A stretch of 64,000 nucleotides of DNA from Rhodocyclaceae bacterium. GTDB lineage: Bacteria > Pseudomonadota > Gammaproteobacteria > Burkholderiales > Rhodocyclaceae. Position numbers and translations under genes: made by a program. The notes beneath the pieces are model-generated. The model had not been told where the DNA came from. It did no database searches and was given only the letters and a program-made list of their open reading frames with translations. The DNA lies in assembly GCA_047600765.1 (NCBI GenBank), contig JASGKF010000002.1, positions 1,226,344 through 1,290,343 on the forward strand, read 5' to 3'. Below are positions 7,819 to 54,819 of the stretch, one piece after another. Numbering within the stretch: the stretch's first letter is position 1; each line of letters begins with the position of its first letter.

Positions 7819-7860
7819 TTGTGATTTGTGCGGACGCAGAATGTTCGGTGGTGTGGTCGG

Positions 7861-7877: not shown

Positions 7878-7903
7878 CGGTAATCAGCGTTGCGAGTGCC
7901 AGA

Positions 7904-9526: not shown

Positions 9527-9698
9527 GTCGATCTCTCTTGCTTTTGTAAGTGCCGGGATTGTGGCAGTGCGTTTTGAAAGCCGCTAGGGGCGTTCTGGCT
9601 TCAATGGCGGGATTTTCGACGTGCGGAGGCTGGTTTGTCGGACAGACGGGGTGCGGACGTGTGTCGAACCGCGCGCTGCGGCCCATCCGGGCACCGCT

Positions 9699-9714
9699 TG
9701 GCACGGGACATGCA
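9699..9714 (+). promoter_or_regulatory. Sigma54 promoter of the EPS/exosortase operon
   Basis: TGGCACGGGACATGCA gives GG-N10-GC, about 170 nt upstream of the export gene. Confidence 0.7.
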
Positions 9715-9885
9715 GCTACAATGCGCGCTCACCGCCCTTTATGTTGCAGCGTGGCATTTTTCCGCTTTCCGGGGGCGCTCTCTGGGTACCATGCCCCGGC
9801 TGTGGTGCCCGATAGCCGGGCTTCTGCGCGAGGCAGATGTCGGTTCATCGCGTTTCCATCCTGAATTGCTTGCTGGAGGTTGATC

Positions 9886-10503: not shown

Positions 10504-10544
10504 CCACCGGCTGCATGCCGTCGTGAGTCCGTCGAGAGATCTGA

Positions 10545-12083: not shown

Positions 12084-12092
12084 GAGCGTCGA

Positions 12093-18949: not shown

Positions 18950-20478
18950 GTGCCACCTGGGTATCGGGGCGGAGCTTGCAACCACGGGTCGCCATCGCGG
19001 CGGCCGTTGCGATGGTTGCCATCATCCTGTTGGTGTTCCACGAAACGGCGCTCGGCGTGTTCCGTATCTGGATGCGCTCGGACACTTTCAATCACTGCCT
19101 GTTGGTGGTGCCGGTCAGCATTTGGCTGATGTGGGAGCGTCGGCGCGATCTGGTCTCGGCGGGTTTCCAGCCGGCCTTGTTCCCGCTGTTGCCTCTCGCC
19201 GGGGCGGCCTTGCTGTGGGTGTTCGGCGAGGCAATCAGTGCGGCTGTCGTATCGCATGCCGCGCTGGTGTTCATGGTGATTGCCGCCATATGGACCTGCT
19301 GGGGCCATCGTGCGAGCTGGCAGGTGCTGTTCCCGCTGTTTTTCCTGGTATTCGGCATCCCCTTTGGCGATTTCCTCGTGCCGATGCTGATGCATTACAC
19401 GGCTGAGTTCACGGTGGCGCTGTTGCGGCTGACGGGCATTCCCGTCTATCAGGAAGGGCAGAATTTCGTCATTCCGAGCGGCCGCTGGTCTGTCGTGGAG
19501 GCCTGCAGCGGCATCCGTTACCTGATCGCTTCGGTGATGGTGGGCGTGCTGTTCGCCTACCTCAATTACCGCAGCCTGACGCGTCGCCTGCTGTTCGTGG
19601 TGGCGTCGTTCGTAGTGCCTTTGCTGGCGAACTGGCTGCGTGCCTACATCATCGTGATGATGGGGCACCTGTCCGGCAACAGTCTGGCCGTGGGCGCCGA
19701 TCACCTGATCTATGGCTGGGTGTTCTTCGGCATCGTCATCGGCCTGCTGTTCTGGGTCGGCAATTTCTGGCGTGAAGACCATCTGCCGCAGGTGCGTCAG
19801 CGAGACTGGCACTGGCGCAGTGCCGGCCGGGTGGCGGTGCCGGCTGTCGTGGTGCTGGGGCTTGCTCTCGTGACGGTGGCAGTGCCGCGTCCCTTGCTGG
19901 GCTGGCTGATGGATGTGCCCGGGGCGGCGGACTATCGTATTCCTGCGGTCACCGTGTCGGGCTGGACTTCCGCTGTGCGTTCGGCGAAGGAGTGGAAGGC
20001 GAGTTTCCGCGGGTCGCGTGTCGAAGACGTGCAGACCTTCGCCAAGGGGCGCGACAAGGTGTCGGTGCAGCTGGCCTACTATGCGCGCCAGACCGAAGGA
20101 CGCGAGCTGGTGCAGTACGACAACTACCTCGTGCAGACCGATGATCCCTTGTGGCACCCGATGAACCGCAAGACGGTGACGGTGGCGCAGGGTGACCGCA
20201 CGCTGACATTCGAACGCGTCGAGCTGGCCGGTGCGGGTGGGCACCTTGTCGTGTTGCGCAGCTACTGGTTGGGCGAGAGTGTTACGCCGTCGGACAAGCT
20301 GGCCAAGCTGGATCTGCTGAAGGCTCGATTACTGCGCAGGCCGGATGATTCCGCCGGCGTTCTGCTGTGGACTTCGGTGGATAATTCGCCCGCGGATGCC
20401 GAGCAGAGGCTCGTCGCCTTCGCTACTGATAACTGGTCCGCCATCGAGGCTGCGCTGCTGCGCACGCCGCTCAAGTAG
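18946..20478 (+). CDS. xrtA: Exosortase A with C-terminal EpsI-like domain
   Basis: Multi-TM N-part with VVEACSGIRYL (catalytic Cys), NWLRAY (Arg) and DHLIYGW (His); periplasmic C-terminal domain. Confidence 0.95.
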   Translation: MSATWVSGRSLQPRVAIAAAVAMVAIILLVFHETALGVFRIWMRSDTFNHCLLVVPVSIWLMWERRRDLVSAGFQPALFPLLPLAGAALLWVFGEAISAAVVSHAALVFMVIAAIWTCWGHRASWQVLFPLFFLVFGIPFGDFLVPMLMHYTAEFTVALLRLTGIPVYQEGQNFVIPSGRWSVVEACSGIRYLIASVMVGVLFAYLNYRSLTRRLLFVVASFVVPLLANWLRAYIIVMMGHLSGNSLAVGADHLIYGWVFFGIVIGLLFWVGNFWREDHLPQVRQRDWHWRSAGRVAVPAVVVLGLALVTVAVPRPLLGWLMDVPGAADYRIPAVTVSGWTSAVRSAKEWKASFRGSRVEDVQTFAKGRDKVSVQLAYYARQTEGRELVQYDNYLVQTDDPLWHPMNRKTVTVAQGDRTLTFERVELAGAGGHLVVLRSYWLGESVTPSDKLAKLDLLKARLLRRPDDSAGVLLWTSVDNSPADAEQRLVAFATDNWSAIEAALLRTPLK

Positions 20479-25255: not shown

Positions 25256-26572
25256 GTGAAGATATCCGTATTCGGTCTGGGTTACGTGGGCGCCGTGTCC
25301 TGCGCATGTCTGCCCGAACTGGGCCACGAAGTGATCGGCGTCGACATCAGCCCGCAGAAGGTCAGCATGATCAACACCGGCCAGTCGCCGGTGGTTGAAG
25401 AAGGTATCAACGAGCTGATCGAAGCCGCCGTGAAGGCCGGCAAGCTGCGCGCGACTGATGATGTGGCAGCTGCCATCGCCGGCAGCGAGGTGTCGCTGAT
25501 TTCGGTGGCCACGCCTTCCAACCCCAACTACACGCCCAATCTGACGGCCGTCGATGCCGTGATCCGTTCGATTGGCGAAGCCGTGCGCAAGAAGGACACG
25601 CATCACACGGTGGTCATCCGCAGCACGGTGCAACCGGGCACGACCGAAGACCGCATCAAGCCCATTCTCGAAGAAGCGGCTGGTCGCAAGGTGGGTGATC
25701 GTCTGTCGCTGGTCTTCAACCCGGAGTTCCTGCGCGAAGGTTCGTCGGTCAAGGATTTTCACCAACCGCCGCAGACCGTCATCGGCAGTCTCGACGAGCA
25801 GGGCTATGCCGTGATGGAGAAGATGTACGACGGCCTGCCCGGCATCTTCGTGCGCACCTCCTGCAAGGTCGCCGAGTCGGTGAAGTACCTCTGCAACGTC
25901 TTCCATGCGATGAAGATCGTGTTCGCCAACGAGGCGGGCTCGGTGCTGAAGTCCTGCGGCCTCGATGGTCGCGAAGTCATGAAGATTTTCTGCCAGGACA
26001 CGCAGCTCAACATCTCGCCGGCCTACCTGCGCCCCGGTTTCGCTTTCGGCGGCTCCTGCCTGCCGAAGGAAGTGAAGGGCTTCTTCACGCTGGCGCGCGA
26101 GCACGATGTGCCGATTCCCGCGTTGTCCGCGTTGCTAGACAGCAACGAGGCGCATATCGACCGCGCTTTCAGCATGATTGCCAAGAACGGTCGCAAGAAG
26201 GTCGCGCTGTTCGGTCTGGCCTTCAAACCGGGCACTGACGACATGCGTGACTCGCCCCTCGTGGTGCTGGCCGAGCGTTTGTTGGGCAAGGGCTTCGATA
26301 TTTCGATCTACGACAACTTCGTGAAGATCAGCCGCCTGCTCGGCAAGAACAAGGAGTTCATCGAGCGCGAGATTCCGCACCTTGACCGCCTGCTGGGCGA
26401 GACGCCGGAAGCTGTGCTGGCCGATGCCGAAGTCATCGTCATCGGCCACGCCGATGCCGCTGCACGCCAGGCCATCATTGCGCATGCCGCGGGTCGTCGC
26501 ATCGTTGACCTCTCTGGCTACGCTGACATCCGCACCGCACCGGCTGCCGAGTACGAAGGCATCTGCTGGTGA
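25256..26572 (+). CDS. Nucleotide-sugar 6-dehydrogenase, AlgD (GDP-mannose dehydrogenase) type
   Basis: GLGYVGAV, NPEFLREG, KYLCNVFHA, PGFAFGGSCLPK, and a C-terminal EGICW identical to the end of Pseudomonas AlgD. Confidence 0.88.
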   Translation: MKISVFGLGYVGAVSCACLPELGHEVIGVDISPQKVSMINTGQSPVVEEGINELIEAAVKAGKLRATDDVAAAIAGSEVSLISVATPSNPNYTPNLTAVDAVIRSIGEAVRKKDTHHTVVIRSTVQPGTTEDRIKPILEEAAGRKVGDRLSLVFNPEFLREGSSVKDFHQPPQTVIGSLDEQGYAVMEKMYDGLPGIFVRTSCKVAESVKYLCNVFHAMKIVFANEAGSVLKSCGLDGREVMKIFCQDTQLNISPAYLRPGFAFGGSCLPKEVKGFFTLAREHDVPIPALSALLDSNEAHIDRAFSMIAKNGRKKVALFGLAFKPGTDDMRDSPLVVLAERLLGKGFDISIYDNFVKISRLLGKNKEFIEREIPHLDRLLGETPEAVLADAEVIVIGHADAAARQAIIAHAAGRRIVDLSGYADIRTAPAAEYEGICW

Positions 26573-35973: not shown

Positions 35974-37209
35974 TCAAACCAGCACTTCCGGAATGGCCGG
36001 ATGCGACAGGAATGTCGCAGGGCTGGCCGTCAGGCCATAGGCGCCGGACTGCAGCACCACCAGCAGATCACCGATCTCCGCTGGAGGCAGTTCGAGGTCG
36101 GTGCCGAGAATGTCCAGCGGGGTGCACAGCGGGCCGACGGCATTGTATCGATGCTCTGTGACAGCACTGGCCTTGTTGCCCAGAAGAGCCGGGTAATTCT
36201 TGCGGATGACCTGGCCGAAGTTGCCACTGGCGGCGAGGTGGTGGTGCAAGCCACCGTCGGTGATGAGGTAGGTCGTGCCACGCGAGACCTTGATGTCCTG
36301 TACGCGGCAGACGTAGACGCCCGCTTCGGCGACGAGGTAGCGGCCCAGTTCGAGCACCAGACGCGCTGTCGGGTGAGCCTGGGCGAGTTGTGCGTCGAGC
36401 GCATGCAGGTGCTGGCCAATGGGGGCGATGTCGAGGCGTGCTTCACCGGGGAAGTAGGGCACGCCGAAACCGCCACCGAGGTTGAGTGTGCGCAGCGGTG
36501 CGGGGGCATCGGCGGCGAGACGCATGGCGAGCTCGAAGCTTTTTGACTGTGCTTCGATGATGGCGTCGGCTTGCAAGTTCTGGCTGCCAGCGAAGAGGTG
36601 AAAACCTTCGAATTGCATGCCCAGTGAAGCGAGCTGTGCAAGCGCGGCGGGAATGCGTTCGGCGTCGATGCCGAAGGGCTTGGGGCCGCCACCCATCTTC
36701 ATGCCCGAGCTCTTGAGTTCGAAGTCCGGATTGACGCGCAGCGCGACGCGCGCTGGCAGCCCCAGTGCTTGCGAGGCTTCGGCAATGCGTACGAGTTCGG
36801 TTTCGGATTCGACATTGAGCAGCACGCCGGCTGCGATGGCCTGGCGCAGTTCGGCCGGGCGCTTGCCGGGGCCGGCGAAGCTGATTTCTGCTGCGGCCAT
36901 ACCACTGTCCAGCGCGGCGCGCATTTCACCTGCGGAGGCGACATCGAGTCCATCGACGAGTTTTGCCATGTACGCCAGCAGCGCGGGCATCGGGTTGGCC
37001 TTGATGGCGTAGTGCAGGCTGACGCGCGCGGGAAGCACTGCTTTCAGCGAGGCCACGCGTTCGCTAATGGCGGAGCGGTCATAAGCGTAGAACGGTGTCT
37101 GGCCGACGCGCTCGGCGAGGCGGGAGAGCGGGATGCCGCCGATGAGCAGTTCGCCATCCTGTTGCGGGAATTGCGTCAGCGGCGCGTGCCTGGGGGGCGT
37201 GGCGTTCAT
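35974..37209 (-). CDS. PLP-dependent decarboxylase, exosortase A-associated (fold-type III, BtrK/DAP decarboxylase-like)
   Basis: HYAIKANP (PLP Lys), SFAGPGK, HLFAGSQ, NLGGGFG, ELGRYLV, GPLCTPLD, GAYG. Confidence 0.9.
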   Translation of the reverse strand: MNATPPRHAPLTQFPQQDGELLIGGIPLSRLAERVGQTPFYAYDRSAISERVASLKAVLPARVSLHYAIKANPMPALLAYMAKLVDGLDVASAGEMRAALDSGMAAAEISFAGPGKRPAELRQAIAAGVLLNVESETELVRIAEASQALGLPARVALRVNPDFELKSSGMKMGGGPKPFGIDAERIPAALAQLASLGMQFEGFHLFAGSQNLQADAIIEAQSKSFELAMRLAADAPAPLRTLNLGGGFGVPYFPGEARLDIAPIGQHLHALDAQLAQAHPTARLVLELGRYLVAEAGVYVCRVQDIKVSRGTTYLITDGGLHHHLAASGNFGQVIRKNYPALLGNKASAVTEHRYNAVGPLCTPLDILGTDLELPPAEIGDLLVVLQSGAYGLTASPATFLSHPAIPEVLV

Positions 37210-38768
37210 GCGGGGCTCCCGGTCGAGGGCTGCGTGCTTTGTGCCAGCAGCGTGCGGTCGATCTTGCCGTTCGGATTGCGCGGCAGGCTGTCAGTTTGCA
37301 GGCGGATGTCGGCAGGCAGCATCCACGCAGGTAGCTCGGGGCGCAGCGCAGCGAGCAGGGCTTCGTTGGTGAGCGCGGCATCAAGAGCCTGCGCGACGAT
37401 GGTGATGGTCTGCCCCAGCGCGGGATGCGGCACACCAAAGGCTGCGACTTCGCGCAGCAGGCCGGTTGCGAGGCAGGCGTCTTCGATTTCGTTGGGACTC
37501 ACGCGGTAGCCGGAGGTCTTGATCATTTCGTCACGACGTCCGATGAAGTAGAGAAAGCCGTCGGCATCGCGGCGCACGGTGTCGCCCGAGAAGACGGCGA
37601 TCTCGGCACGTGTCTGGCCTTCACGCAGTGGCAGCGGGCGATAGCGTTCGGCGGTCTTCTCCGTGTCGTTCCAGTAGCCCAGCGCGACCAGTGCGCCGCG
37701 CTGTACGAGTTCGCCGGGTTCGTCGGCAGCACACTCGCTACCATCTGCGCGCAGCACCATGACTTCGGCATTCGGGATGGCCTTGCCAATGGAGTCCGGA
37801 CGGCGGTCAACTTCTTCAGGCGGCAGGTAGGTGGCGCGGAAGGCCTCGGTGAGGCCGTACATGAGGAAGGGCTTGGCCACTGGCGCGCGTTGGCGCAGCG
37901 CGGCGAGCGTCTCGCGCGGCATGCGGCCACCGGTGCTGGCGAAGTAGCGCAGCGGGGCGACGGCGTCGGCGGGCCAGTCGAGCGCGGCGAGCTGCGTCCA
38001 CAGCGGCGGCACGGCAGTGAGGCCGGTGATCTGGTCGCGTGCCATGGCGCGCAGCACATCGCGTGGCAGCAGGTAGTTGAGCAGGCTGACGCTGGCACCC
38101 ACGCTGAAGGCTGTGGTGAGCTGCGAGAAGCCCGCATCGAAAGACAGTGGCAGGGCTGCGAGCAGACGGTCTTCAGCGTGATTGCCGAGATAGCTGGCGA
38201 CGCTGCGCGCGCCGACGACCAGATTGCGGTGCGAGACCATCACGCCCTTGGGGCGGCCAGTGCTGCCCGAGGTATAGAAGATGCAGGCGAGGTCTTCGTC
38301 AATGACGCGATGGGCGTTGGCAACAGGTTCGGTGTAGCGGGCTTGCCAGGCTGCTGCGTCGTCACTGTCGACGACCAGTGTGTCACGCAATGCCGGGCAG
38401 TCCGCCAGCAAGGGCTGCAGCAAAGGCAAACGCGCAGCGGTGGTGACCAGCATGCTGACGCTGCAGTCCTGCAGGATGTGGGCGACCTGGGCGGGCTTGA
38501 GCTGCGGATTGACCGGCACGAATACCGCACCGGCACGGCTGGCGGCGAAGGCGCTGATGACGAACTCCGGGCGCTTCTCCATCCAGATGGCAACCCGTTC
38601 GCCGCGTGCGAGGCCCTGGCGCAGCAGGCTGGCAGCCAGGCCTTCGATGTTTGCAGCGAGCCCGGCATAGTGCATTGCCTGGCCGCCATCGATCAGTGCC
38701 GTGGCGTCTGGTGCGCGCTGTGCCGCGTGCAAGGGCAAGTCGTGCAGCAGGAAGGCGGTGGCGCTCAT
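37206..38768 (-). CDS. AMP-forming acyl/aminoacyl ligase, exosortase A-associated
   Basis: YTSGSTGRPKGV, LMYGLTEAFR, SGDTVRRDADGFLYFIGRRDEMIKTSGYRVSP, NGKIDR; start MSATAF at 38768. Confidence 0.9.
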   Translation of the reverse strand: MSATAFLLHDLPLHAAQRAPDATALIDGGQAMHYAGLAANIEGLAASLLRQGLARGERVAIWMEKRPEFVISAFAASRAGAVFVPVNPQLKPAQVAHILQDCSVSMLVTTAARLPLLQPLLADCPALRDTLVVDSDDAAAWQARYTEPVANAHRVIDEDLACIFYTSGSTGRPKGVMVSHRNLVVGARSVASYLGNHAEDRLLAALPLSFDAGFSQLTTAFSVGASVSLLNYLLPRDVLRAMARDQITGLTAVPPLWTQLAALDWPADAVAPLRYFASTGGRMPRETLAALRQRAPVAKPFLMYGLTEAFRATYLPPEEVDRRPDSIGKAIPNAEVMVLRADGSECAADEPGELVQRGALVALGYWNDTEKTAERYRPLPLREGQTRAEIAVFSGDTVRRDADGFLYFIGRRDEMIKTSGYRVSPNEIEDACLATGLLREVAAFGVPHPALGQTITIVAQALDAALTNEALLAALRPELPAWMLPADIRLQTDSLPRNPNGKIDRTLLAQSTQPSTGSPA

Positions 38769-39757
38769 GAGGGGTTGCGGATCCTTGCTTTCAGCCAGCG
38801 CGGGATGAAGTGTCGTGCCGCGCGCAGTTTGCCGCCCAGCGAATGGCGGTCGAATGCGAGCAAGGCAACCAGCGCGCGACGATGCGTCATCCACTCTGAC
38901 TTGTAGGCATCGTCACCGGTCAGGAAGTCGATTTCCGTCACGCCGTCGATAGACATGACATGTTCGAACAGGGCTGCCGTGAGGACGGTGCCAACGCCCA
39001 GTCTGGCAAAGCGCGCATCGTAAGCGAGTTTATAGATGGAGGCCGTCTGATTCTTCACGAACCACACCTGAGCGGCGGCAGGTTCGCCCTGAACATGGAG
39101 CACGGCCAGGCGTAGGCTGCCCTGTGCGGCAGTCATGCGGCACAGGCCGGGTATGAAGTCGGGGAATGGCTCAGCCTCCTTCCAGCTGGAGGCATAGACA
39201 CGCTGGAATGCGGCTAGTCCCTCGTTGAATCCGGAGCCTGCCTGCAGGATGAAGTCGATACGGAAACCGGGCGTTTCCTTGAGCTTGCTGTGGCATCTGC
39301 GCAGGGTGTTGCGCAGTCGAGAGGGGCGCTCGGCGAGGTAGCTTTGCCAGCTGAGACCAGCGCAGGGAAGGTACCAGTTGGTGCTGACAGGCAGCAGATC
39401 TGTCGAGAAATCGGCTGATAGTGCCTGTATCAACGCCGGCAACCAGGGAGCATCCTCGCGCAGGGGGCGCAAAATGACTTGCTGCGGGGACTGCGCGCGC
39501 AGGTTCTGCACGAATGCAGGCAGAGTGTCTGCGCAGGGCTGCAGGCCGTCTTCAAAGCCAAAGTCTGGACTGTAGAAATTGCTGCAGGATTCCAGCCCTC
39601 CCGAGCCCCGCATCAAGTGCATGCGCAGTCCGGCAGCTGCGATCAGAACGGGGTGCGCGTCAGGCGGCAGGCCTTTTTGCTGAAGGAGCTCGAACCAGTC
39701 CCGGCCAAGGAACAGCGAACTGCTGCCGGCTTGTCCAGGCAGGGTCGGGCAATTCAT
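38765..39757 (-). CDS. GNAT acyltransferase (Acetyltransf_6/FemAB-like)
   Basis: SNFYSP, LRNTLRR, VYASSWKEAE, YKLAYD, EIDFLTGDDAYKSEWM; probable start MNCPTL at 39757. Confidence 0.8.
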   Translation of the reverse strand: MNCPTLPGQAGSSSLFLGRDWFELLQQKGLPPDAHPVLIAAAGLRMHLMRGSGGLESCSNFYSPDFGFEDGLQPCADTLPAFVQNLRAQSPQQVILRPLREDAPWLPALIQALSADFSTDLLPVSTNWYLPCAGLSWQSYLAERPSRLRNTLRRCHSKLKETPGFRIDFILQAGSGFNEGLAAFQRVYASSWKEAEPFPDFIPGLCRMTAAQGSLRLAVLHVQGEPAAAQVWFVKNQTASIYKLAYDARFARLGVGTVLTAALFEHVMSIDGVTEIDFLTGDDAYKSEWMTHRRALVALLAFDRHSLGGKLRAARHFIPRWLKARIRNPS

Positions 39758-41421
39758 CAGGTCGGCTTTCGAGGGGCTGACGGTGTCGCGCCAATCCTGG
39801 GCGGGGCCTTGTCTGTCTGGCAGACATAAAGTGCTATGCCGCGGTCGATCAACTCCATGCGACAACGATCTTTGAGATAGCGGCTGAACTCCGGATAGTG
39901 ATCCGGGCTGAAGGTCACGGCATCGCCTGAACCCAAGGGGCGGCCGGAAATGTCCACGATGAAGCGCGGGGGCTTGTCCTCCAGATCCTTCATGAAGCGC
40001 TGCCAGATGCCGGGCTTGACAATGCGCAAGCGTGCGGCGGGATCCATGCCCGGGGTGTATTCGGCGAACGTGCCTTGGAGATGATCGGTCAGGAGTACCT
40101 TGGACGCGCCAATCAGGCGAGTGGTGATGAAGTAATCAGGGGCATACCCCCAGACATAAAGCCGGTCATCAGCTTGCGACAGGGCGTTGATACGCATCGT
40201 GATCGGTGATTGCGTCGGTGGAGTCGAACCACTCAGCAGCTGTTTGACAATGGGGGTGCCCGCGGCGACCGCGCTTGAAATGATGGCCAGCGCCCCTGTG
40301 CAGAGCGCAATCCGTCGGAGGATGAGGCTCTCCTGCTGCAGGCAGAACTGGATGAAATAGCCACCCGCCAGTGCCAACGCCGGAAAAGTGAAGAGGTAGT
40401 AGGCCGGATAGTATTCGCGCCCCAGGCTGACGGCGGCAAAGGCGCCGAGCAGGGAAACGAGCAGGAAGCTGCGGACGGGCAGGCTTTGCCCGCTTGCTGT
40501 TGGGTTGGTCCGGTGGCCTGCCGTGGCTAGCACACCCAGCACTGCGAGTAGCCAGCATAGCGGGGCGAGGCGACTGTACTCTTCGGTCGCCGTTACAAAC
40601 CGCATGAGGCGTCGGGATAGTGGGGTGGTGTCCACCGTGGCATAACGGGAGGGGTACTCCAGCGTCTGGTAGATCAGGTCTTCGAGTCCGCCCGCCGCGC
40701 TGAAGTACAGGGCTGCCATGGCAAGAGGCAGAGCGAGTCCGCCAGCGTATGACAGTGCGGTGTGCAGGGTGCTGCGTAGTCTCCGGCCGTTTGTGTATGC
40801 AGCAAGACATAGAACAGACATGCCGGCGGCGGCTAGAACCGCTGGTTGCTTGAACAGCATCGCGACGCCGGTTAGCGCTCCGGCTCCGGCGAAGCCCGCA
40901 TAAGAGACGCGTTTGGCCGAACGCAGCATCAGCCACAAAGCAAGACTCAAGGGCAGGGCTGCAAGTTGCTCGGTCTTGACGGCAATGAAACGCGGATCGC
41001 CTGTTCCCAGCAGCAGGAAAAGAATGCACGCCCAGATGCCCGCCTGGCGCCCCCCCAACTCTGACGCCGCCAGAAAAATGGCGCCTGCGGTCAGGAATAC
41101 CCACAGCATGCCGAAGGCGTGAATGGCTTGCATGTTGTAGTCGCCGAACAGGCTGAAGACCACCTGGTAGATCAGGAAGACGCCGGGGGGCTTGTTGTCG
41201 ATGCAGGCAAGCAGGGGGCCGCTATGTTCTGCAATGGCTCGCATGGCGCAAGCAGCGAAAAAACTTTCGTCTACATTGAGTGAGCCCGCCGTCAGATAGT
41301 GGGCACGAATGCCGAACTGGCAGACGAGTACGGCGGCAAGACACAACCAGGAAAACGCGGCAAGCTGGTTGGCGGGGTTCCTGCGGAAAGCGTCGACAAT
41401 TCTTGGGAACATGTCCGGCAT
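39757..41421 (-). CDS. GT-C-fold (ArnT/PMT_2-like) membrane glycosyltransferase
   Basis: LNVDESFF, DNKPPG, LFKQPA, many TM segments and a soluble C-terminal domain; start at 41421 or 41412. Confidence 0.75.
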   Translation of the reverse strand: MPDMFPRIVDAFRRNPANQLAAFSWLCLAAVLVCQFGIRAHYLTAGSLNVDESFFAACAMRAIAEHSGPLLACIDNKPPGVFLIYQVVFSLFGDYNMQAIHAFGMLWVFLTAGAIFLAASELGGRQAGIWACILFLLLGTGDPRFIAVKTEQLAALPLSLALWLMLRSAKRVSYAGFAGAGALTGVAMLFKQPAVLAAAGMSVLCLAAYTNGRRLRSTLHTALSYAGGLALPLAMAALYFSAAGGLEDLIYQTLEYPSRYATVDTTPLSRRLMRFVTATEEYSRLAPLCWLLAVLGVLATAGHRTNPTASGQSLPVRSFLLVSLLGAFAAVSLGREYYPAYYLFTFPALALAGGYFIQFCLQQESLILRRIALCTGALAIISSAVAAGTPIVKQLLSGSTPPTQSPITMRINALSQADDRLYVWGYAPDYFITTRLIGASKVLLTDHLQGTFAEYTPGMDPAARLRIVKPGIWQRFMKDLEDKPPRFIVDISGRPLGSGDAVTFSPDHYPEFSRYLKDRCRMELIDRGIALYVCQTDKAPPRIGATPSAPRKPT

Positions 41422-41560
41422 GATTCCTGGGGCTGGTAGTGGGGCGTGCTTGGGACCGTCTGCAGGACGTGCTTCCCGAGACCGGTGGATATAATACCGG
41501 ACTGGAATTAGTGAACTGCTCGTGGCCTTGTCTGGCTGCGGCGCATTGAGGAAGCCTGGT

Positions 41561-41809
41561 TTGGATATTCGCAAGGAACTGGCGGTGGTGCTGGACGACG
41601 TGCTGGGGCTGAAGGGCCGTGCACAAGGTTTCGTTGACAGCACGCCGCTGCTGGGGGCGCTGCCCGAGCTCGATTCGATGGCGGTTGTGGGCATCATTGC
41701 CGGTATCGAAGAGCATTTCGGGGTGTATCTCGCCGATGATGAAATCGATGGCAGCAGCTTTGAGACTTTCGGCAGCCTGCTCAAACTGGTGCAGGACAAG
41801 ATTGGCTGA
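41561..41809 (+). CDS. Acyl carrier protein, exosortase A-associated
   Basis: 82-aa acidic protein with PELDSMAVV (phosphopantetheine Ser); probable TTG start at 41561. Confidence 0.9.
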   Translation: MDIRKELAVVLDDVLGLKGRAQGFVDSTPLLGALPELDSMAVVGIIAGIEEHFGVYLADDEIDGSSFETFGSLLKLVQDKIG

Positions 41810-41818
41810 CCGGCCCTG

Positions 41819-42658
41819 ATGGAACCCTTCTACCTCCCCACACCGGAAGGGCGCATTTACGGATTGCATCTTCCCGCTGGCGGTACGCCTCGGGGGGCGT
41901 TGTTGTGGCTGCCGCCGTTCGCCGAAGAGGCGCACTGCGCACGTCGCCATCTGGTCGCGGCAGCGCGGGAGTGCCAAGCCGAAGGTTTCTCCAGCCTGTT
42001 GATTGATCCATTGGGTACGGGGGAGAGCGACGGTGACTTCTCCAGCGCAAGCTGGGAAATCTGGTGCCGTCATGTGGGCCTCGCTGCGAGCTGGTTGCGT
42101 GAGCGGGTGCCGGCTCCGCTGTGGCTGGCTGGATTGCGTGCAGGCAATCTGCTGGCGGCCGATGTCGCAGCGCAGGTGATGCCGGCGGGGTTGCTGTGCT
42201 GGCAGCCCGCGATGGATGGCCGGACGGTGCTGGACGGTTTCCTGCGACTCAAACTGGCGTCGACCTGGGCGGCAGATGCGGGTGGAAGTTCTGGAAGCAA
42301 TGCCGCCAGCATCCTCGCTGATTTGCGTGACGAACTTGCTGCTGGTCGAAGTGTGGATGTCGCAGGCTTTACGCTCTCAGCCGAACTGGCCGGTGTGCTG
42401 GCATCGCGTGGCATGTCCTGGGCGCTTGATTGCGCCCCGCGACTGGCTTGTCTTGAATTCCGGTCTCGCCAGACAGATGGTGTGCTGCCTCCGCATTCAC
42501 CGGGCTTGGCGCGACAGCGTGACAACTGGCGTTCGCAGGGAGTGCAGGTACTCAGCCAGGTCGTGGAGGCACCGCAATTCTGGTTGCAGCATGAGGCGCC
42601 GCTGACACCAGGGTTAGGGCGCGCCAGCGCAGCCTTGATCGGGAAGCTGGAAGCATGA
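41819..42658 (+). CDS. Alpha/beta hydrolase 2, exosortase A-associated
   Basis: LPPFAEEAHCARR, DPLGTGESDGDF; elbow reads GLRAG (no Ser); LRLKLA motif. Confidence 0.85.
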   Translation: MEPFYLPTPEGRIYGLHLPAGGTPRGALLWLPPFAEEAHCARRHLVAAARECQAEGFSSLLIDPLGTGESDGDFSSASWEIWCRHVGLAASWLRERVPAPLWLAGLRAGNLLAADVAAQVMPAGLLCWQPAMDGRTVLDGFLRLKLASTWAADAGGSSGSNAASILADLRDELAAGRSVDVAGFTLSAELAGVLASRGMSWALDCAPRLACLEFRSRQTDGVLPPHSPGLARQRDNWRSQGVQVLSQVVEAPQFWLQHEAPLTPGLGRASAALIGKLEA

Positions 42659-43512
42659 CGCTGGCCACGAGTTTTCCCCTCGTCATTCCGCTTGGTCAGA
42701 AACATGCGCCGCGACTGGTGGGCACCGTGCATCCGCCGGCGGGTGAGCCTCGTGGGCCCGGCGTTGTATTCGTGACGGGTGGCATGCAGACGCGGGCGGG
42801 CAGTCATCGCGGCTTCATTTCGCTGGCGCGTGTGCTTGCCGCCAGTGGCTTTCCCGTTTTGCGTTTCGATCTGCCCGGATTGGGCGACGCCGAAGGCGAG
42901 ATGCGTGACTTCGCAGACAATACGGATGTCATCCACGCTGCTACGGATGCCTTGATCTCGGCCGTACCGGGTATGGATCGGGTGGTGCTGTGGGGCCTGT
43001 GTGATGGTGCCAGCGCAGCGGCCCTGTTCGTGCGTGAAGAGTCGCGCGTAGCCGGGCTCTTTCTCGTCAATCCCTGGTTGCTGTCGGAACAGGCGCAAGC
43101 CCGTGCGATGTCAGGCTATTACAGGCAACGTTTCCTGTCGCCAGAGTTCTGGCGCAAGCTGCTTGGCGGCCAGGTGGATGTCACCGGAGCTTTGCGTGGC
43201 TACGTCATGAACTGGTGGTGTGCGAAGGGGGATTCTGACCCAGCACAGCCTGCTGCTCAGGCCGGCAGGGTTCAACCCTTGTCTGCACGTGTGCTGCAGG
43301 CGCTGGAATCTTTTGACGGCAAGCTGCAGCTTGTCGTGTCGGGACAAGACCTGACTGGGCAAGCTTTCGTAGCGGCAGCTGCTGGTCGCAGTTTGTCACT
43401 CATACAGGTCGGGGACGCCGATCACACCTTTTCGTCCATCGCAGCACAACAGCAACTCGAAGTGCTGAGCCAGCAGTTCCTGGAGTCGTTCTGCCCGGAC
43501 CGCGCGCCCTGA
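42655..43512 (+). CDS. Alpha/beta hydrolase 1, exosortase A-associated
   Basis: GGMQTRAGSHR, RFDLPGLGDAEG, elbow WGLCDGAS (Cys), VNPW, DLTG, ADHTFS. Confidence 0.85.
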   Translation: MTLATSFPLVIPLGQKHAPRLVGTVHPPAGEPRGPGVVFVTGGMQTRAGSHRGFISLARVLAASGFPVLRFDLPGLGDAEGEMRDFADNTDVIHAATDALISAVPGMDRVVLWGLCDGASAAALFVREESRVAGLFLVNPWLLSEQAQARAMSGYYRQRFLSPEFWRKLLGGQVDVTGALRGYVMNWWCAKGDSDPAQPAAQAGRVQPLSARVLQALESFDGKLQLVVSGQDLTGQAFVAAAAGRSLSLIQVGDADHTFSSIAAQQQLEVLSQQFLESFCPDRAP

Positions 43513-48080: not shown

Positions 48081-48087
48081 GCTGGTC

Positions 48088-49566
48088 TCAGAAATTGAAG
48101 TAAATGAAGGCGCTGACCGCACTGCGCGTCGCGTTGATCAGCATGGCGCACAGGATGATCGTCCACGCGCAACCCAGTACGAAAGCAGGCCAGCGTGCCG
48201 AGCCATTGCAGAAGCGGATCAGCCATTCGCCGATGCGGTTGCTGTTGGGCAACAGCGCACAGCACAGCAGGCCGATGATGCAGAACAGCACCGCGGTGCC
48301 GGTGTGGATGCCGGCATTCCATAACAGGGTGTGTGGCGCGTCGAATGCCACCGGCTGGCTCAGCATGGCGCTCAGCAGGGTGTTGGCGCCATGCAGGTCC
48401 GTCGCGCGGAAGAATACCCAGCCAACCATGACAGCCAGCAGGGTCACGATCCAGGCAAACACGCTGTAAGCGCGTCCTTGCAGGATGGTTTCCGGCAGCA
48501 TCGCAGCCGCGCCCGCGCGCCAAGCGTGATTGATCATCAGGTAGCCGCCATGCAGTGCGCCCCAGATGACGAAGTTCCAGCTCGCGCCGTGCCACAAGCC
48601 ACCGAGCAGCATGGTGGTGAAGAGGTTGGCATAACGACGCACGGCACCGTGACGACTGCCACCCAGCGGGATGTAGAGGTAGTCACGCAGGAAAGCCGAC
48701 AGGGTCATGTGCCAGCGCCGCCAGAAGTCGATGATCGATAGCGCCTTGTAGGGCGAATCGAAGTTGTAGGGCAGGCTGATGTTGAGCATGCGGGACAGGC
48801 CGATGGCCATGTCCGAGTAGCCGGAGAAGTCGAAGTAAAGCTGCAGGGTGTAGGCGAGCACGCCCAGCCAGGCTTCAAGCAGATCCGGCGTGATGCCTTG
48901 GCTACTGCCATGGAAGACGGCATCGGCAATCGGCGAGATGCCGTCCGCGATGACGACCTTCTTGATCAGGCCCAGCATGAAGATGGCTGAGCCTGCCGCG
49001 AAATTGCCAGCGTTGAAACGATAAGTCGAGGCATCGCCGAACTGCGGCATCATCTGCGCGTGATGCAGCACCGGGCCGGCAATCAGGTGCGGGAAGTAGG
49101 TGACGAACAGGCCGTAGTGCGCCACGCGCGGTTCGCTGACGCCCTTCTGGTAGGCATCGGCGAGGAAGGCAATCTGCGTGAAGGTGAAGAACGAGATGCC
49201 GATGGGCAGCGTGATGGGATCTAACGCGATGTGCGTGCCCAGTGCGAGACTCAGGTTGTCGACGAAGAAGTTGGCGTACTTGAACCAGGCGAGTACAGCG
49301 AGATTGACCGTGATGCCCAGCACCAGCCAGCTGCGTGCGCTGAATGTTTTTCCTCGGCCCAGGATGCGTTTGCCGATGAAGTAATTCCAGGCAATCGAGA
49401 GCAGCAACAGGATGCTGAACTGCGGCATCCACCAGGCGTAGAAACCTACCGAAGCAATGAATAGCCAGCTTGCCGCGAGCGGATGCGAGCGCTGCCCCAG
49501 CAAGAAGAAAACGCTGAGGGCGAGCGGCAGGAAGACGAGTATGAACTCGGCAGAAGTGAAGAGCAT
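48088..49566 (-). CDS. MBOAT O-acyltransferase (AlgI/PatA type)
   Basis: MLFTSAEF, LPIGISFFTF, FPHLIAGP, YFDFSGYSDMAIG, DFWRRWHMTLS, LWHGASWNF. Confidence 0.93.
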   Translation of the reverse strand: MLFTSAEFILVFLPLALSVFFLLGQRSHPLAASWLFIASVGFYAWWMPQFSILLLLSIAWNYFIGKRILGRGKTFSARSWLVLGITVNLAVLAWFKYANFFVDNLSLALGTHIALDPITLPIGISFFTFTQIAFLADAYQKGVSEPRVAHYGLFVTYFPHLIAGPVLHHAQMMPQFGDASTYRFNAGNFAAGSAIFMLGLIKKVVIADGISPIADAVFHGSSQGITPDLLEAWLGVLAYTLQLYFDFSGYSDMAIGLSRMLNISLPYNFDSPYKALSIIDFWRRWHMTLSAFLRDYLYIPLGGSRHGAVRRYANLFTTMLLGGLWHGASWNFVIWGALHGGYLMINHAWRAGAAAMLPETILQGRAYSVFAWIVTLLAVMVGWVFFRATDLHGANTLLSAMLSQPVAFDAPHTLLWNAGIHTGTAVLFCIIGLLCCALLPNSNRIGEWLIRFCNGSARWPAFVLGCAWTIILCAMLINATRSAVSAFIYFNF

Positions 49567-49612: not shown

Positions 49613-50515
<903 letters not shown>

Positions 50516-50779: not shown

Positions 50780-53137
50780 TTACTTTGTGTAGATGCCCGG
50801 AGCTTCGCTCAGTCCGACCACCGTGTTTCTCGGCACGATGTTCCATGTGGGGTTGCTCATGAACCCGGCACGATCCGAGTTGGTGCTCCCGGTATACATT
50901 GCCTGATCGCGTAGCCAGACGTAGCCGGAGCTCGGAACGGTCGTGTCGGCACCAGCAGAGTCAATGGCTCCGGCCAGAACTGCCATTGCCATGCCGACGT
51001 ACCCGTTGGCGTCGTTGTATCCAACAATCTTGGTAGGCGCTGTCGGGTTGCGTGCAGCGTAGCTTGTACCGCCGAAAGCATAGTAGTTCAGCTGGGCCAT
51101 GCTGGTGAGCGTAGTGCCATTGCTCAGCTTGGAGGGCAAGCGATAGGTCGCTCCGTCGAGTCGATCAAAGTCGGAACCGCTCGTAAAGCGCTTGACGGTA
51201 TAGCCCACCGCGAAATCGCGAATGTCGGTGGCGGCGTAACCGCGCTCACACAACTCAAACAGCGTATATGCCATGAAGTCGTGTTGCCATGGCGAGACCA
51301 CGTCTGCAACGCCACCAGGCGAGTAGGGCAGTTCGTAGGAAGCAAAGCCCGACCAACCTGTCCAGTAACCGAGGGTGTTGTTCGTCATGACCGTTGTTCT
51401 GTACCAAGCAAAGTTGTTGTTCAACTTGTCGGTGAAGTAGGTCTTTTGCCAATCGCTGTCCGGAGCAATCCATGCAGCATGGCCACCCGTACGGAGCTTC
51501 CATGCCATCTGGCGGGTGTTGTCGCCGATGTACCAACCTTTTTCATAGCCGCGATAAGCGTAGTGCGGGGAGATCTGGTACCAACCGGCCCAGAAATAGA
51601 GTTCATCCAGGTAAAACCGATCACCGGTGACGATGTACGGGACGTAAACCAAGGACGGATGGTGCGCGTCATCGACAGTGAATCCGGAAGGCGTCGTCAA
51701 AGGCAGGCTGGGCGCTGGCAAGGAGTCACCGGACCAGTTGGTATAAGGGTCGCCACGGTAAGCCTGGCTGCCGTTGTAGAACAGAGAGAAATTCGGATGG
51801 TCGTCAATGCTGAAGATGCTGGCATTGGAGGTGGTGGCACCGCTCTTGAGCGAGTCTCGCCAATGCACCTCCCAGAACCCGGCTCGTTCGGCATGATCAA
51901 GCATCATCTGGTACATGCGGGGATCGCCGGAAATCAGGGCCAGTGCAGTCCATCCGGGCAGTGGGCCAATGTCCCAGCGTCCGCCCGTGGAGGGCATGTA
52001 GGGCTGCATGCGCGCGGCTTGGTAAAGTCCGCGGGAGCTAGTCAGCCATGAGCTATAGGTGCTGCTCAACGTACCTTCTGGAATCGTGATGCTCGCGTAA
52101 TTGGGAATGGCGCGTGAATTCTTCAGGCGAGCGGTGTCGGCAATGGTCAGGATGTCCTTGCTACCTGTGCCGAAATTGAAGAGCTTGCGGAAGCGCGTAT
52201 GGGCGTAGTGCTTGACGTCATCCGCGGCATAAACCAGATCCGTGGTGCCGCCGATGATCTGGTAGATGCGCAGGTTGTAGAGACGGTCACCACGCGAGCT
52301 GTTCGATTCGACGTTTTCCAGCGTGATCGACACACGACCTTGCGAAGTGCTTTGGTAACGGGCATCGAAGACGATGCGCAGGCCGGGGTGCGGGCCGGAA
52401 ATGCCGGTCGCGGTTGGCGCAACACGCGAACGCCATTCCGACACGAGCGGACCACTGATCCAGCTGTCTGCGTTGTTCGTGAGTGAAGCCTTGAGGTTGG
52501 CACTCCACAGCAGACCGGTTTCCGGCGTGCTGGCGCCGCTGGCGGTGGTGCTCTTCTCGATGATCTCCACGCGGTAGTCGGGATTGCTGCCGCCGGTCAC
52601 ATCCGAGACAACCAAGGGCGTTCCGGACGCGCCAGAACCTGTGGCCGACAGTGTCATAGCGACGGTGGCCTGGCCCGAGCCGACCGAAGCGGCAGGCAGG
52701 CGCACGCTGATGACTGCGTGGCGGATGGAGTTGTCTGGGTGACGACGCTTGACAATGGTCTGGGTCGGCAGGTTGGTGCCGCCGTTGCGGGCCTGAACGA
52801 CCTGGCCGGAAGCGATTTCGCCAGCCGGGAAGGCTTGTCCGAAGGTCACCACCGTACCGTTATCAATAGTGGTATCCGGGCTGACCGCGGTCACATTGCC
52901 CGGGGTGGAGGGCACCGGGGTCCAGGTGATGGTCGTGTCGAAATTGTTCGAGCTGGCAGCAGATGAGGTGCCGCCGGACGACGTTGTTGCCTTGGATGAA
53001 GAGCTGTTGCTGACCAGGGAGAAAGTGCCAGCAGTGTTGCCAACGACGTTGGTGCTACCGCCACCGCCTGTTCCGCCGCAGGCACTTACCGCGATACATG
53101 CAAGCAGGGCGACGAAACGTGAATTGCTGAGAGACAT
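50780..53137 (-). CDS. 785-aa lipoprotein of unknown function, PcRGLX/YetA (PL26)-like architecture suspected
   Basis: Lipobox VSAC and Gly/Ser linker, VTFGQAFPAG...PTQ...HPDNSIRH (RIFT-barrel-like), GPLVSEW beta region, and an aromatic-rich helical C-part with YIVTGDRFYLDEL. Confidence 0.7.
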   Translation of the reverse strand: MSLSNSRFVALLACIAVSACGGTGGGGSTNVVGNTAGTFSLVSNSSSSKATTSSGGTSSAASSNNFDTTITWTPVPSTPGNVTAVSPDTTIDNGTVVTFGQAFPAGEIASGQVVQARNGGTNLPTQTIVKRRHPDNSIRHAVISVRLPAASVGSGQATVAMTLSATGSGASGTPLVVSDVTGGSNPDYRVEIIEKSTTASGASTPETGLLWSANLKASLTNNADSWISGPLVSEWRSRVAPTATGISGPHPGLRIVFDARYQSTSQGRVSITLENVESNSSRGDRLYNLRIYQIIGGTTDLVYAADDVKHYAHTRFRKLFNFGTGSKDILTIADTARLKNSRAIPNYASITIPEGTLSSTYSSWLTSSRGLYQAARMQPYMPSTGGRWDIGPLPGWTALALISGDPRMYQMMLDHAERAGFWEVHWRDSLKSGATTSNASIFSIDDHPNFSLFYNGSQAYRGDPYTNWSGDSLPAPSLPLTTPSGFTVDDAHHPSLVYVPYIVTGDRFYLDELYFWAGWYQISPHYAYRGYEKGWYIGDNTRQMAWKLRTGGHAAWIAPDSDWQKTYFTDKLNNNFAWYRTTVMTNNTLGYWTGWSGFASYELPYSPGGVADVVSPWQHDFMAYTLFELCERGYAATDIRDFAVGYTVKRFTSGSDFDRLDGATYRLPSKLSNGTTLTSMAQLNYYAFGGTSYAARNPTAPTKIVGYNDANGYVGMAMAVLAGAIDSAGADTTVPSSGYVWLRDQAMYTGSTNSDRAGFMSNPTWNIVPRNTVVGLSEAPGIYTK

Positions 53138-53341
53138 CGTGAATCCTTATGTGCTGCAGAATGACAGATGTGCTTGCGGTTGGAATCCGTGAAAAATTTA
53201 ACGCTGACGGACAGCGTGTCCCAGGCGCCGACGAGTGGAATGCGCTGTTGTTTTTATTGATTTTTATATTTTTTGTGATTTTTTGCGCTTAGGCAGAACC
53301 GCGAGCTTACCTGTTTGCCATGAAACTTGTCGTTGCAGTTG

Positions 53342-53421
53342 GCACATCAGCAATGCCGCTGATCCGGTTTCCCGTGGGCATTTGCGTTCCACCAAGGAGA
53401 CCGGTGATTTGCTGCAAGTGC
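53342..53421 (-). ncRNA. Candidate GEMM / c-di-GMP-I-class riboswitch variant (A at the G20-equivalent position)
   Basis: Minus strand GCACUUGC-A-GCAAA-UCACC-GGUCUCCUU-GGUGG-AACGCAAA-UGCC-CACGG-GAAA-CCG-GAUCAGC-GGCA-UUGC-UGAU-GUGC. It matches the GEMM-I blocks GCAAA, ACGCAAA, AGC and UURC, with pairable P1, P2 and P3. Confidence 0.55.
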
Positions 53422-53561: not shown

Positions 53562-54023
53562 TCACGACTGGGGAGGCCTCGCTGTCGCCTGACGCAATGG
53601 CAGCATCAGGATGGCGTCGCTGTTCGTCCAGGAGAAGCACTGTTGTGCCGCTTCCTGCCAGGGCAGCCATTGCTGGGCACGGTGCTCGGCCGGGGCGGTG
53701 GCGATGGGCGTGGCATCAGGTACGCATACGCTAAAAACATGCTCGAGGTTATGCGTAACACCCGGGGCGTAGCGATGACGCCACAGCGGCAGGATTTCGA
53801 AGCGGTTGCATAGCGCCCAGTCATGCAGGTCTTCGGGCTGGATTTGCAGCCCTGTTTCTTCGGCCAGCTCGCGTTGCGCAGTCTGTCGCGGGATTTCGCC
53901 TGGCTCCAGGCTGCCGGTGACGGATTGCCAGTAGCCAGGGTGTGCGGCGCGTTCGAGCAGCAGGATCTGCAGATCCTGCGTGTGCACCAGTACCAGAACG
54001 GAGACCGGGTGCTTGAAGCTCAC
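53562..54023 (-). CDS. nudB: Dihydroneopterin triphosphate diphosphatase (Nudix)
   Basis: FKHPVSVLV, WQSVTGSLE, AQRELAEETG, WRHRYAPGVTHNLEHVF, CFSWTN. Confidence 0.92.
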   Translation of the reverse strand: MSFKHPVSVLVLVHTQDLQILLLERAAHPGYWQSVTGSLEPGEIPRQTAQRELAEETGLQIQPEDLHDWALCNRFEILPLWRHRYAPGVTHNLEHVFSVCVPDATPIATAPAEHRAQQWLPWQEAAQQCFSWTNSDAILMLPLRQATARPPQS

Positions 54024-54448
54024 GGGTAGGGCTGGTTGGGTGCGGCCTCACTGGCGACCAGGAAGAGCCGGCCTTCGTCACGCCAGTAAAGACAGACGTC
54101 GAGCAATAACTCGTGCAGCAGGGCTGAAAGCCCGGGGTGTGCTGCGGCGAACGAGGCCTGGTCGGGCAGGATCAGTACGTAGCCGTCCGTGTCCAGCCAG
54201 GAAAGATCCGTCAGGCAGTCGACAAGAGCGTCCGCGTTGTGGCCGAACCACTCGGGGAGGTGCAGCGAGTGGCCGCAGGCGGCATACAGGCTGGTTTCGT
54301 CATGGACACCCTGCAGCGGCAGTTCGAGCAGGCAAAGGCCCTCCGAAACGGCCGCCTTGCGTAGTTTGGCAACCTGATCGGCCGTCAGGCTGACAAGTCC
54401 GCTGCTTTCGGGGTTGCCCAGATCGGGCAGGGGTTGCGAGCGGGTCAT
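54020..54448 (-). CDS. Barstar-family ribonuclease inhibitor
   Basis: LHLPEWFGHNADALVDCLTDLSW; directly downstream of the RNase gene. Confidence 0.88.
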   Translation of the reverse strand: MTRSQPLPDLGNPESSGLVSLTADQVAKLRKAAVSEGLCLLELPLQGVHDETSLYAACGHSLHLPEWFGHNADALVDCLTDLSWLDTDGYVLILPDQASFAAAHPGLSALLHELLLDVCLYWRDEGRLFLVASEAAPNQPYP

Positions 54449-54819
54449 GGCGTCACCCTGCGGAAGCTGCGGTAATGGTCGGCGGTGTAGTAGAGCTCTT
54501 CGTCACTGCCCGCAATGATGCGGCGGGCGCCGCGCGTTGACTCGCCGGGTGTGCGAACGGTGAATTCCCGGTAGTACTGACGCGGCCGCGGGGGGAGCAG
54601 TCTTTCGCGGTTGCGGAATTCGATGCCGTCACGTGAGTACGGGAACGGGCCGCCGCGGCGGATGAGCTGGATGGTTTCGCGGGCTTCGGTTGGCAGCTGG
54701 GCGAAGGTAACGGTGTTGGCGGGCTGTACTTCACGTGCAGAGACTGCGGATGCGCCAGACAGCATGACTGCCAGCAACAGATGGGCAATCACCCACAGCG
54801 TGCGCGACACGGCTCGCAC
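54445..54819 (-). CDS. Secreted guanyl-specific ribonuclease (barnase/RNase Sa family)
   Basis: Signal peptide, GGPFPYSRDGIEFRNRERLLP, YYREFTV, RGARRII, YYTADHYRSF. Confidence 0.92.
   Translation of the reverse strand: MRAVSRTLWVIAHLLLAVMLSGASAVSAREVQPANTVTFAQLPTEARETIQLIRRGGPFPYSRDGIEFRNRERLLPPRPRQYYREFTVRTPGESTRGARRIIAGSDEELYYTADHYRSFRRVTP

Follow-up and report, generated by a model that had tools for sequence, protein, structure and literature searches.

A predicted lipid-anchored protein with a PL26-type barrel is a candidate exopolysaccharide depolymerase associated with exosortase A loci

Results

The stretch of DNA analysed here (64,000 nucleotides, hereafter the window) comes from a Rhodocyclaceae bacterium (contig JASGKF010000002.1, positions 1,226,344 to 1,290,343) and carries on its minus strand a gene for a 785-residue lipoprotein, our target. 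The open reading frame (ORF) spans 50780-53137, as an earlier note made from the letters alone had claimed; it has an ATG start and its stop codon at 50780-50782, and homologs of the coding sequence (CDS) were found. That note also called the product a lipoprotein, and the N-terminus indeed reads MSLSNSRFVALLACIAVSAC followed by GG, which we take as a signal peptide of residues 1-20 (53078..53137, minus strand) ending in the lipobox V-S-A-C, with Cys20 and a glycine at +2. The tetrapeptide of this IAVSAC site agrees with the pattern [LVI][ASTVI][GAS]C, and the cysteine is retained among close relatives (alignment consensus 'CGGG'). A lipobox is also present in a paralog from the same genome (FALSAC, again followed by GG). 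Judged from these features, Cys20 would be the lipidated residue, and both lipidation and sorting to the outer membrane are predicted.

Behind the signal peptide lies a Ser/Thr/Gly-rich tether of about 50 amino acids (residues 21-72; 52922..53077, minus strand), of which 63% are serine, threonine or glycine (25% S, 19% T, 19% G). The predicted local distance difference test score (pLDDT) stays below 50 over residues 1-72, and the tether is accordingly predicted to be disordered. At the other end the protein terminates in ...SEAPGIYTK; when we looked for a PEP-CTERM signal in this C-terminus, neither a PEP motif nor a transmembrane tail was found. The C-terminal half had been described as very rich in Trp, Tyr and His, which holds for Trp and Tyr (4.0% and 7.5%, where 12 neighbouring proteins have 1.7% and 2.5%) but fails for His, whose 1.8% lies below the 2.7% baseline of those neighbours. 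The GC content across the gene is 0.57-0.59, compared with 0.62-0.66 in the flanks.

The earlier note had guessed at the layout of PcRGLX and YetA, a RIFT barrel followed by a beta-sandwich and an alpha-toroid, from four motifs, all of which we located: VTFGQAF at residue 97, HPDNSIRH at 133, GPLVSEW at 229 and YIVTGDRFYLDEL at 501. An AlphaFold2 model built with 30 homologs (mean pLDDT 86.4, predicted template modelling score (pTM) 0.86) bears out this guess. It contains a small barrel with strands between residues 82 and 166, a beta-sandwich spanning 187-332 and, from 335 to 785, a helical domain. On the minus strand these correspond to a PcRGLX-type RIFT barrel at about residues 73-170 (52628..52921; supported by the model strands, Pfam PF19501 and HHalign, and holding VTFGQAF and PTQ..HPDNSIRH), a central beta-sandwich at about residues 171-333 (52139..52627; from the model and conservation, with conserved W226, G229, E234, R260, N275, Y287 and H310), and a C-terminal helical domain resembling an alpha/alpha toroid at residues 334-785 (50783..52138; from the model helices, Foldseek and conservation). 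When the full-length model was compared with the Protein Data Bank (PDB) by Foldseek, ranks 1 to 8 were all PcRGLX, which belongs to polysaccharide lyase family 26 (PL26), with E 3.6e-7 to 5.9e-5 and probability 0.99-1.0. The next match was a dextran dextrinase like those of glycoside hydrolase family 15 (GH15; E 0.017), followed by GH94, GH88, GH105, PL27 and GH63. The comparison with PcRGLX by AlphaFold and Foldseek was also the check that the earlier note had proposed, with a missing alpha/alpha toroid as the outcome that would speak against it; a toroid-like domain is present in the model.

The C-terminal domain was also modelled alone (pLDDT 84.8). Its Foldseek matches were alpha/alpha toroids only, all of them weak: GH88, GH105, PL27, GH76, C3d, AGE-type epimerases, squalene cyclase and GH116. 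Best among these, though still weak, were the uronate-active GH88 and GH105 unsaturated glucuronyl/galacturonyl hydrolases and the PL27 lyase (PDB 1VD5, 1NC5 and 5NOA; probability 0.96-0.97, E 0.01-0.07, template modelling (TM) score 0.25-0.32, identity 11-13%). These enzymes have no barrel and sandwich, and the match may reflect generic toroid shape only.

To place the protein relative to PL26, we used as references true PL26 genes, which were found through PF21346 (570-580 bits, serving as positive control) and combined into a PL26 profile; one of them reaches 741 bits against PcRGLX and has relatives that bear the name of exo-rhamnogalacturonan lyase family proteins. PcRGLX itself is the exo-rhamnogalacturonan lyase of Penicillium chrysogenum (EC 4.2.2.24; PDB 5XQ3, 5XQG and 5XQJ) and is the best Foldseek match of the target by five orders of magnitude. 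Alignment of the family profile with the PL26 profile by HHalign covered the barrel only (Prob 92.9%, E 3.8e-7, 88 columns). It pairs VTFGQxF..G with VTWGVPWPxG and QxDxKxxHxDGSVRHA (also given as QxDxKxxHPDGSxRHA) with LQSWPLAxWPDGSLKWTAHA, so that two of the four motifs quoted above are real PL26-type barrel motifs, with V-T-[FW]-G and [HW]-P-D-G-S-[VIL]-[RK]-[HW]-A common to both sides. Consistent with this, 38 of 64 diverse members of the family give a match to PF19501 (PcRGLX_1st, the RIFT barrel) at E<=0.01. One member (P0036) lies above the curated cut-off (38 bits against 22.1), while the target is sub-threshold and its same-genome paralog weak (18.2 bits).

The models of the other two PcRGLX domains gave nothing. 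PF21345 (PcRGLX_2nd) was found neither in the target (E<=1) nor in the 64 relatives (E<=0.01) nor in the six-frame translation of the genome (E<=1), and PF21346 (PcRGLX_3rd) was absent from the target, the 64 relatives and the whole genome. The barrel is thus homologous to that of PL26 and the architecture is alike, yet the family is not a member of PL26. Both groups are exported and share the order of barrel, sandwich and toroid, which YetA-like PL26 proteins also have. They differ in the central domain, about 160 residues here and about half of the 360 positions of the Pfam model, and in the size of the mature protein (about 710 residues here, about 900 in PL26). They differ further in the export signal, which is that of a lipoprotein here, whereas many bacterial PL26 proteins are named Tat-signal proteins in their source records, and in setting, the family standing beside exopolysaccharide (EPS) synthesis genes while the known role of PL26 is pectin breakdown. 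A PF19501 search of 300 genomes of the phylum also returned two proteins of 869 and 831 residues with the barrel above cut-off that belong neither to PL26 nor to the target family (G047:C42 896-3505 and G146:C11 639-3134). Since the PcRGLX RIFT barrel occurs on several otherwise unrelated bodies, it appears to serve as a shared module.

Conservation was computed over 176 representatives with at most 50% mutual identity. H492, G505, R542, W546 and R549 are invariant (1.00), followed by G229, R260, G385, Y501 and P559 (0.99), Q126, W226, E234 and Y287 (0.98), H425 (0.97), and D135 and N275 (0.96). No Asp or Glu is fully invariant across the 176 members; D560 (0.94) and E512 (0.93) are nearly so. 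All these conserved residues are present in the target, which is therefore not a decayed copy. Going by the pattern of conservation, a core made up of His, Tyr and three Arg residues, in which no carboxylate is fully invariant, appears to resemble uronate lyases more than glycoside hydrolases.

The earlier note had regarded the protein as an orphan, which is wrong. Searches of the 785-residue sequence against Pfam, NCBIfam and the PDB sequences found nothing, and family profiles found nothing relevant in the PDB (matches in one such search were due to immunoglobulin (Ig) domains appended in some relatives and were discarded). A word-indexed search, however, returned 34 relatives, the best named of which is a hypothetical protein of Viridibacterium curvum (82% identity), and an exhaustive HMMER search with clustering at 50% identity yielded 2,175 clusters at E<=1e-3, 600 of them at E<=1e-30. 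Many of these matches are portions of proteins of 1,000-2,200 residues. The target thus belongs to a large unnamed family, with 470 loci among GTDB species genomes, and no Pfam or NCBIfam model spans the whole protein. Members occur in Massilia, Noviherbaspirillum, Pseudoduganella, Polyangium, Ideonella and Rhizobacter as well as in Fibrobacteria, Anaerolineales, Armatimonadota and Planctomycetota. Relatives bear type IX secretion system (T9SS) sorting tails, RTX repeats and Ig, fn3, CBM25 and laminin-G modules, from which we conclude that the family is exported.

The paralog mentioned above is a 747-residue lipoprotein (lipobox LSAC followed by GG), 31% identical to the target. A 452-residue right-handed beta-helix protein begins one base downstream of it, the pair occupying 9364-12967 of G000:C1:2011000-2030999, where G000 denotes the present genome. 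A family member followed by a right-handed beta-helix-type secreted protein is also seen in about 15 Massilia-type loci, and this recurrence suggests a two-enzyme set.

We further surveyed the neighbours of the best 80 of the 470 loci by calling ORFs, clustering the neighbours and naming recurrent clusters with NCBIfam. A marker of the exosortase A (XrtA) system (TIGR03013, PrsK, PrsR, TIGR03097, TIGR03098, TIGR03099, TIGR03100 or TIGR03101) lies within 8 kb in 29 of the 80 loci, and XrtA markers or other EPS genes accompany the family in 41. The recurrent neighbours include the TIGR03013 protein EpsB_2, PrsK, PrsR, the exosortase-A O-glycosylation ligase, ligase_PEP_1, dCO2ase_PEP1, hydr1_PEP and hydr2_PEP, together with a TviB-like UDP-GlcNAc 6-dehydrogenase, a TviC-like UDP-GlcNAcA 4-epimerase, a MOP flippase and a DltB/AlgI-like MBOAT protein. 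The 29 XrtA-linked loci carry 11 taxon labels, and their gene orders differ among Oxalobacteraceae, Rhodocyclales, Acidiferrobacterales and Salinisphaera. In a co-occurrence sample of 300 genomes of the class, an exosortase was present in 6 of 8 family-positive genomes compared with 77 of 299 overall (Fisher p=0.004, with kinship ignored and uncorrected for phylogeny). One sampled genome has the family gene and an exosortase 13 kb apart. The link to a uronate-type EPS locus that the earlier note had drawn for this one genome is thereby strengthened, as the family recurs beside XrtA/PEP-CTERM EPS genes in several orders.

A tblastn search of 50,697 phage records gave a single match, gp39 of EBPR siphovirus 1 from phosphorus-removal sludge (JF412302.1, 8239-10578; 779 residues, annotated 'hypothetical protein'). 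This protein is a full-length family member (HHalign Prob 100%, E 1.6e-69) and retains H492, Y501, R542, W546 and R549. In BFVD, a 430-residue phage protein matches at E 3.7e-15 with a TM score of 0.68. Phages commonly carry depolymerases for the surface polymer of their host, and the phage copy would fit a matrix-depolymerase activity of the family. The adjacent gp40, annotated 'glycosyl hydrolase', matches PDB chitinases in its fn3 part only and is unrelated to the beta-helix partner; we made no use of it.

Within the window, the minus strand reads, in order, a GT-C protein, a HAD-UbiA protein, an AlgX/J-like protein, an MBOAT protein, argB, the target, a NUDIX hydrolase, barstar, a barnase-like RNase, dut and coaBC. 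The argB-type amino-acid kinase (49613..50503, minus strand; Pfam AA_kinase and synteny) stands between the target and the genes for EPS O-acylation, and the NUDIX hydrolase (53562..54023, minus strand; Pfam and synteny) forms the conserved flank on the other side. The O-acylation pair consists of the AlgI/DltB-like MBOAT gene (48088-49566, minus strand), a family that also adjoins members in 5 other loci, and the AlgX/AlgJ-like gene (47052-48122, minus strand), whose Pfam match is below cut-off (25.0 against 26.5 bits). More distant are genes of an exosortase-A-associated ligase, decarboxylase, hydrolase 1 and hydrolase 2 (35974..43512, given without a common strand; TIGR03098, TIGR03099, TIGR03100 and TIGR03101). 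TIGR03100 (hydrolase 1) scores above its cut-off and TIGR03101 (hydrolase 2) reaches 195.0 bits, just under 202.75. The hydrolase pair at 41819-43512 (plus strand) best matches exosortase A-associated hydrolase 2 and hydrolase 1 of the standard XrtA gene set.

The EPS locus next door that had been predicted earlier is confirmed; it includes a nucleotide-sugar 6-dehydrogenase, which would form a uronic-acid precursor (25256..26572, plus strand; Pfam UDPG_MGDP_dh, TIGR03026 at 371 bits). The exosortase XrtA itself is encoded at 19003..19776 on the plus strand (TIGR03109 at 340.6 bits, cut-off 208; G000:C2:1245346-1246119). The window also holds a Wzx-type flippase, GNAT/FemAB-like genes and glycosyltransferases, and a TIGR03013 priming transferase lies about 32 kb past the target on the opposite side. 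With XrtA-system genes on both sides, the target sits inside a wide XrtA/EPS region interleaved with housekeeping genes.

The gene had been said to interrupt a nudB-argB run. The interruption stands, for in the same-genus genomes G003 and G006 the NUDIX gene adjoins argB with no family gene between them; the name nudB does not, since only a NUDIX domain is shown. Within the genus the family is found in two of six other genomes, and G004 carries an 82% ortholog at the same position. In a related Rhodocyclales metagenome-assembled genome (G001), a homolog of 50% identity is inserted elsewhere, with the barnase-like RNase on one side and dut on the other (5884-7911 of G001:C26:68000-81000). As judged from this synteny, an accessory gene apparently landed in a conserved run more than once, at two different points. 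The barnase-like secreted ribonuclease (Pfam Ribonuclease) and barstar themselves, at 54020-54819 on the minus strand between NUDIX and dut, are conserved in the genus.

Comparison with V. curvum revealed a conserved 5' leader or promoter region with an A-rich tract (53138..53347, minus strand): identity is 90% over the 210 nt before the start codon, 78% in the CDS and 65% over the next 214 nt upstream. It includes a terminator-like hairpin, ACGCTG-TCCGT-CAGCGT followed by TAAATTTTTC, at 53201..53217 (minus strand), 64 nt upstream of the ATG and kept in V. curvum. The predicted fold of the leader is not unusually stable (z -1.3). The leader likely holds some conserved control element, to go by its conservation. 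Scans for promoters found no sigma-70 consensus upstream of the target and no good GG-N10-GC site for a PrsR-dependent sigma-54 promoter in the 424 nt upstream.

The earlier note had placed the gene downstream of a riboswitch candidate and had proposed cyclic-dinucleotide control. A GEMM-type riboswitch in the leader that switches expression of the target would account for the ACGCAAA / GGGAAACC-like stretch at 53342-53421 and for the conserved leader and hairpin downstream of it. However, no Rfam model matched the 424-nt upstream region, and neither c-di-GMP, cGAMP nor any other plausible model appeared even at E<=10 on 500 nt or, over 7 kb, at E<=1. The arms of the proposed P2 stem, CACCGG / TTGGTGG, become CAGCGC / CAACGA in V. 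curvum without compensation, so that the stem is lost in the closest relative, and the GEMM-like stretch falls mostly inside the poorly conserved 65% part. We consider such a switch very improbable, and both of these claims are left unsupported.

Discussion

The protein adjoins EPS genes in many bacteria, which suggests that it probably cleaves an acidic slime polymer made by the cell itself. The explanation that we put first, at about an even chance, is a tethered depolymerase for the uronate-containing EPS that the cell itself makes; of the two chemistries, lyase and hydrolase, we lean to the lyase roughly twice as strongly. Catalysis, substrate, lyase chemistry, cellular location and physiological role of the 785-residue protein are all inferred. 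The putative glycan-cleaving enzyme would be exported, lipid-anchored and flexibly tethered through about 50 residues. It would most likely trim or depolymerise the cell's O-acylated EPS with its uronate content, either in the periplasm or on the surface of the cell. Such trimming might control chain length, release or matrix remodelling. Cleavage would more likely proceed by beta-elimination than by hydrolysis, with H492 and Y501 as base and acid and with Arg260, Arg542 and Arg549 holding the carboxylate.

This arrangement, with an exported glycan cleaver beside synthesis genes for an acidic, O-acylated EPS, recalls the depolymerases of EPS operons AlgL (PL5, alginate), PelA, PslG, BcsZ and WssD. 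The likeness lies in the adjoining AlgI-like MBOAT and the weak AlgX/AlgJ-like match, and in the proposed role of trimming, release and periplasmic clearance. Unlike these enzymes, the target has another fold and family and carries a lipid anchor on a long tether, and the role proposed for it is read from position only.

Several observations weigh against this explanation. The whole-chain TM score to PcRGLX is only about 0.3 (0.22-0.34), with a root-mean-square deviation of about 15 A (14-21 A), which means that the likeness is one of domain types and their order, the domains being arranged or shaped differently. For the C-terminal domain alone, all Foldseek matches have E>=0.01 and TM<=0.37, PcRGLX is absent from the best 50, and the toroid as modelled is unlike any solved toroid. 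Its profile also shows no similarity to the PL26 profile (HHalign Prob 0.2%), and PL26 chemistry therefore cannot be transferred to it. The argument from His, Tyr and Arg is one of pattern, and E234, D135, E512 and D560 could serve a hydrolase. At the locus, the target has its own leader and argB separates it from the EPS genes, which places it outside the EPS operon. About half of the 80 surveyed loci have no EPS genes within 8 kb, and the enrichment of XrtA above cut-off in family-positive genomes is not significant (3 of 8 compared with 47 of 299, p=0.11). In Polyangium the family genes are followed by a glycoside-pentoside-hexuronide:cation (GPH) symporter, a context that looks catabolic, and some members of the family as a whole are probably catabolic.

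How the polymer is cut is the point at which the nearest alternative departs. A glycoside hydrolase or transglycosylase in the same place and on the same substrate is to us a possibility of about one in four. Most enzymes that combine a beta-sandwich with an (alpha/alpha)6 domain are hydrolases or phosphorylases, and once PcRGLX is passed the Foldseek matches of the full-length and C-terminal models include the GH15-like dextran dextrinase, GH94, GH63, GH88, GH105, GH76 and GH116. The nearly invariant acids (E234 at 0.98, D135, D560 and E512) point the same way, as does a catalytic domain lacking profile similarity to PL26. Nevertheless, a lyase is the one strong structural relative, and the polar positions that are fully invariant hold His and Arg, Tyr standing at 0.99, rather than a carboxylate pair. 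The associated EPS loci also encode uronate-forming dehydrogenases.

The substrate may also be foreign. An enzyme that scavenges plant, algal or other bacterial polysaccharides, brought to the EPS locus by an accident of insertion in a variable spot, would explain the patchy distribution in the genus, the different insertion point in a relative, and the GC content below that of the flanks. The symporter beside the Polyangium homologs agrees with it, and so do the T9SS tails and carbohydrate-binding modules of relatives, as found in catabolic carbohydrate-active enzymes; true PL26 enzymes are themselves catabolic. We regard this as rather unlikely for the target, given that XrtA-system genes are found within 8 kb in 29 of the 80 loci, which span several orders and differ in gene order, that MBOAT is a repeated neighbour, and that no sugar uptake or catabolic genes flank the target in the window. 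Least probable of these readings of the protein, and very unlikely, is a non-catalytic glycan-binding or scaffold lipoprotein with a PL26-like shell. No activity is known for any family member, a fact that also counts against the depolymerase, and the C-terminal domain resembles no solved enzyme. However, a phage carries a copy, and the invariant His, Arg and Trp, with Tyr at 0.99, over 176 members speak for an active site rather than a binding surface.

Returning to the depolymerase acting on the cell's own EPS, a more specific and more tentative proposal can be built on it, one that we hold to be possible but rather doubtful. In this proposal the family would be a new polysaccharide-lyase family that joins a PL26-type barrel and sandwich to a catalytic toroid of its own. 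Its substrate would be the uronate matrix polymer of XrtA/PEP-CTERM systems, the 'zoogloeal' floc glue of activated-sludge bacteria. Bacteria would employ the enzyme for remodelling flocs or escaping from them, and sludge phages, EBPR siphovirus 1 among them, for penetrating the matrix. The target may thus have a role in floc dispersal. The earlier note had offered a novel CAZyme family as one option; this remains open and is favoured, since the models of the second and third PL26 domains do not match and the C-terminal domain shows no similarity to PL26. What the present analysis adds is the repeated XrtA/PEP-CTERM linkage, the sludge-phage copy, and the finding that only the barrel is shared with PL26. 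We found no paper in the open literature that treats polysaccharide enzymes with a RIFT barrel, or a lyase encoded in floc loci of the PEP-CTERM type.

XrtA/PEP-CTERM EPS systems drive floc formation in wastewater bacteria, and to our knowledge little has been established about the chemistry of these polymers or about the enzymes responsible for their turnover. The family described here is a concrete candidate for the missing depolymerase of this EPS. If active, it would add a family to CAZy and provide a tool for dissecting the structure of floc EPS, as well as a handle on sludge bulking and dispersal.

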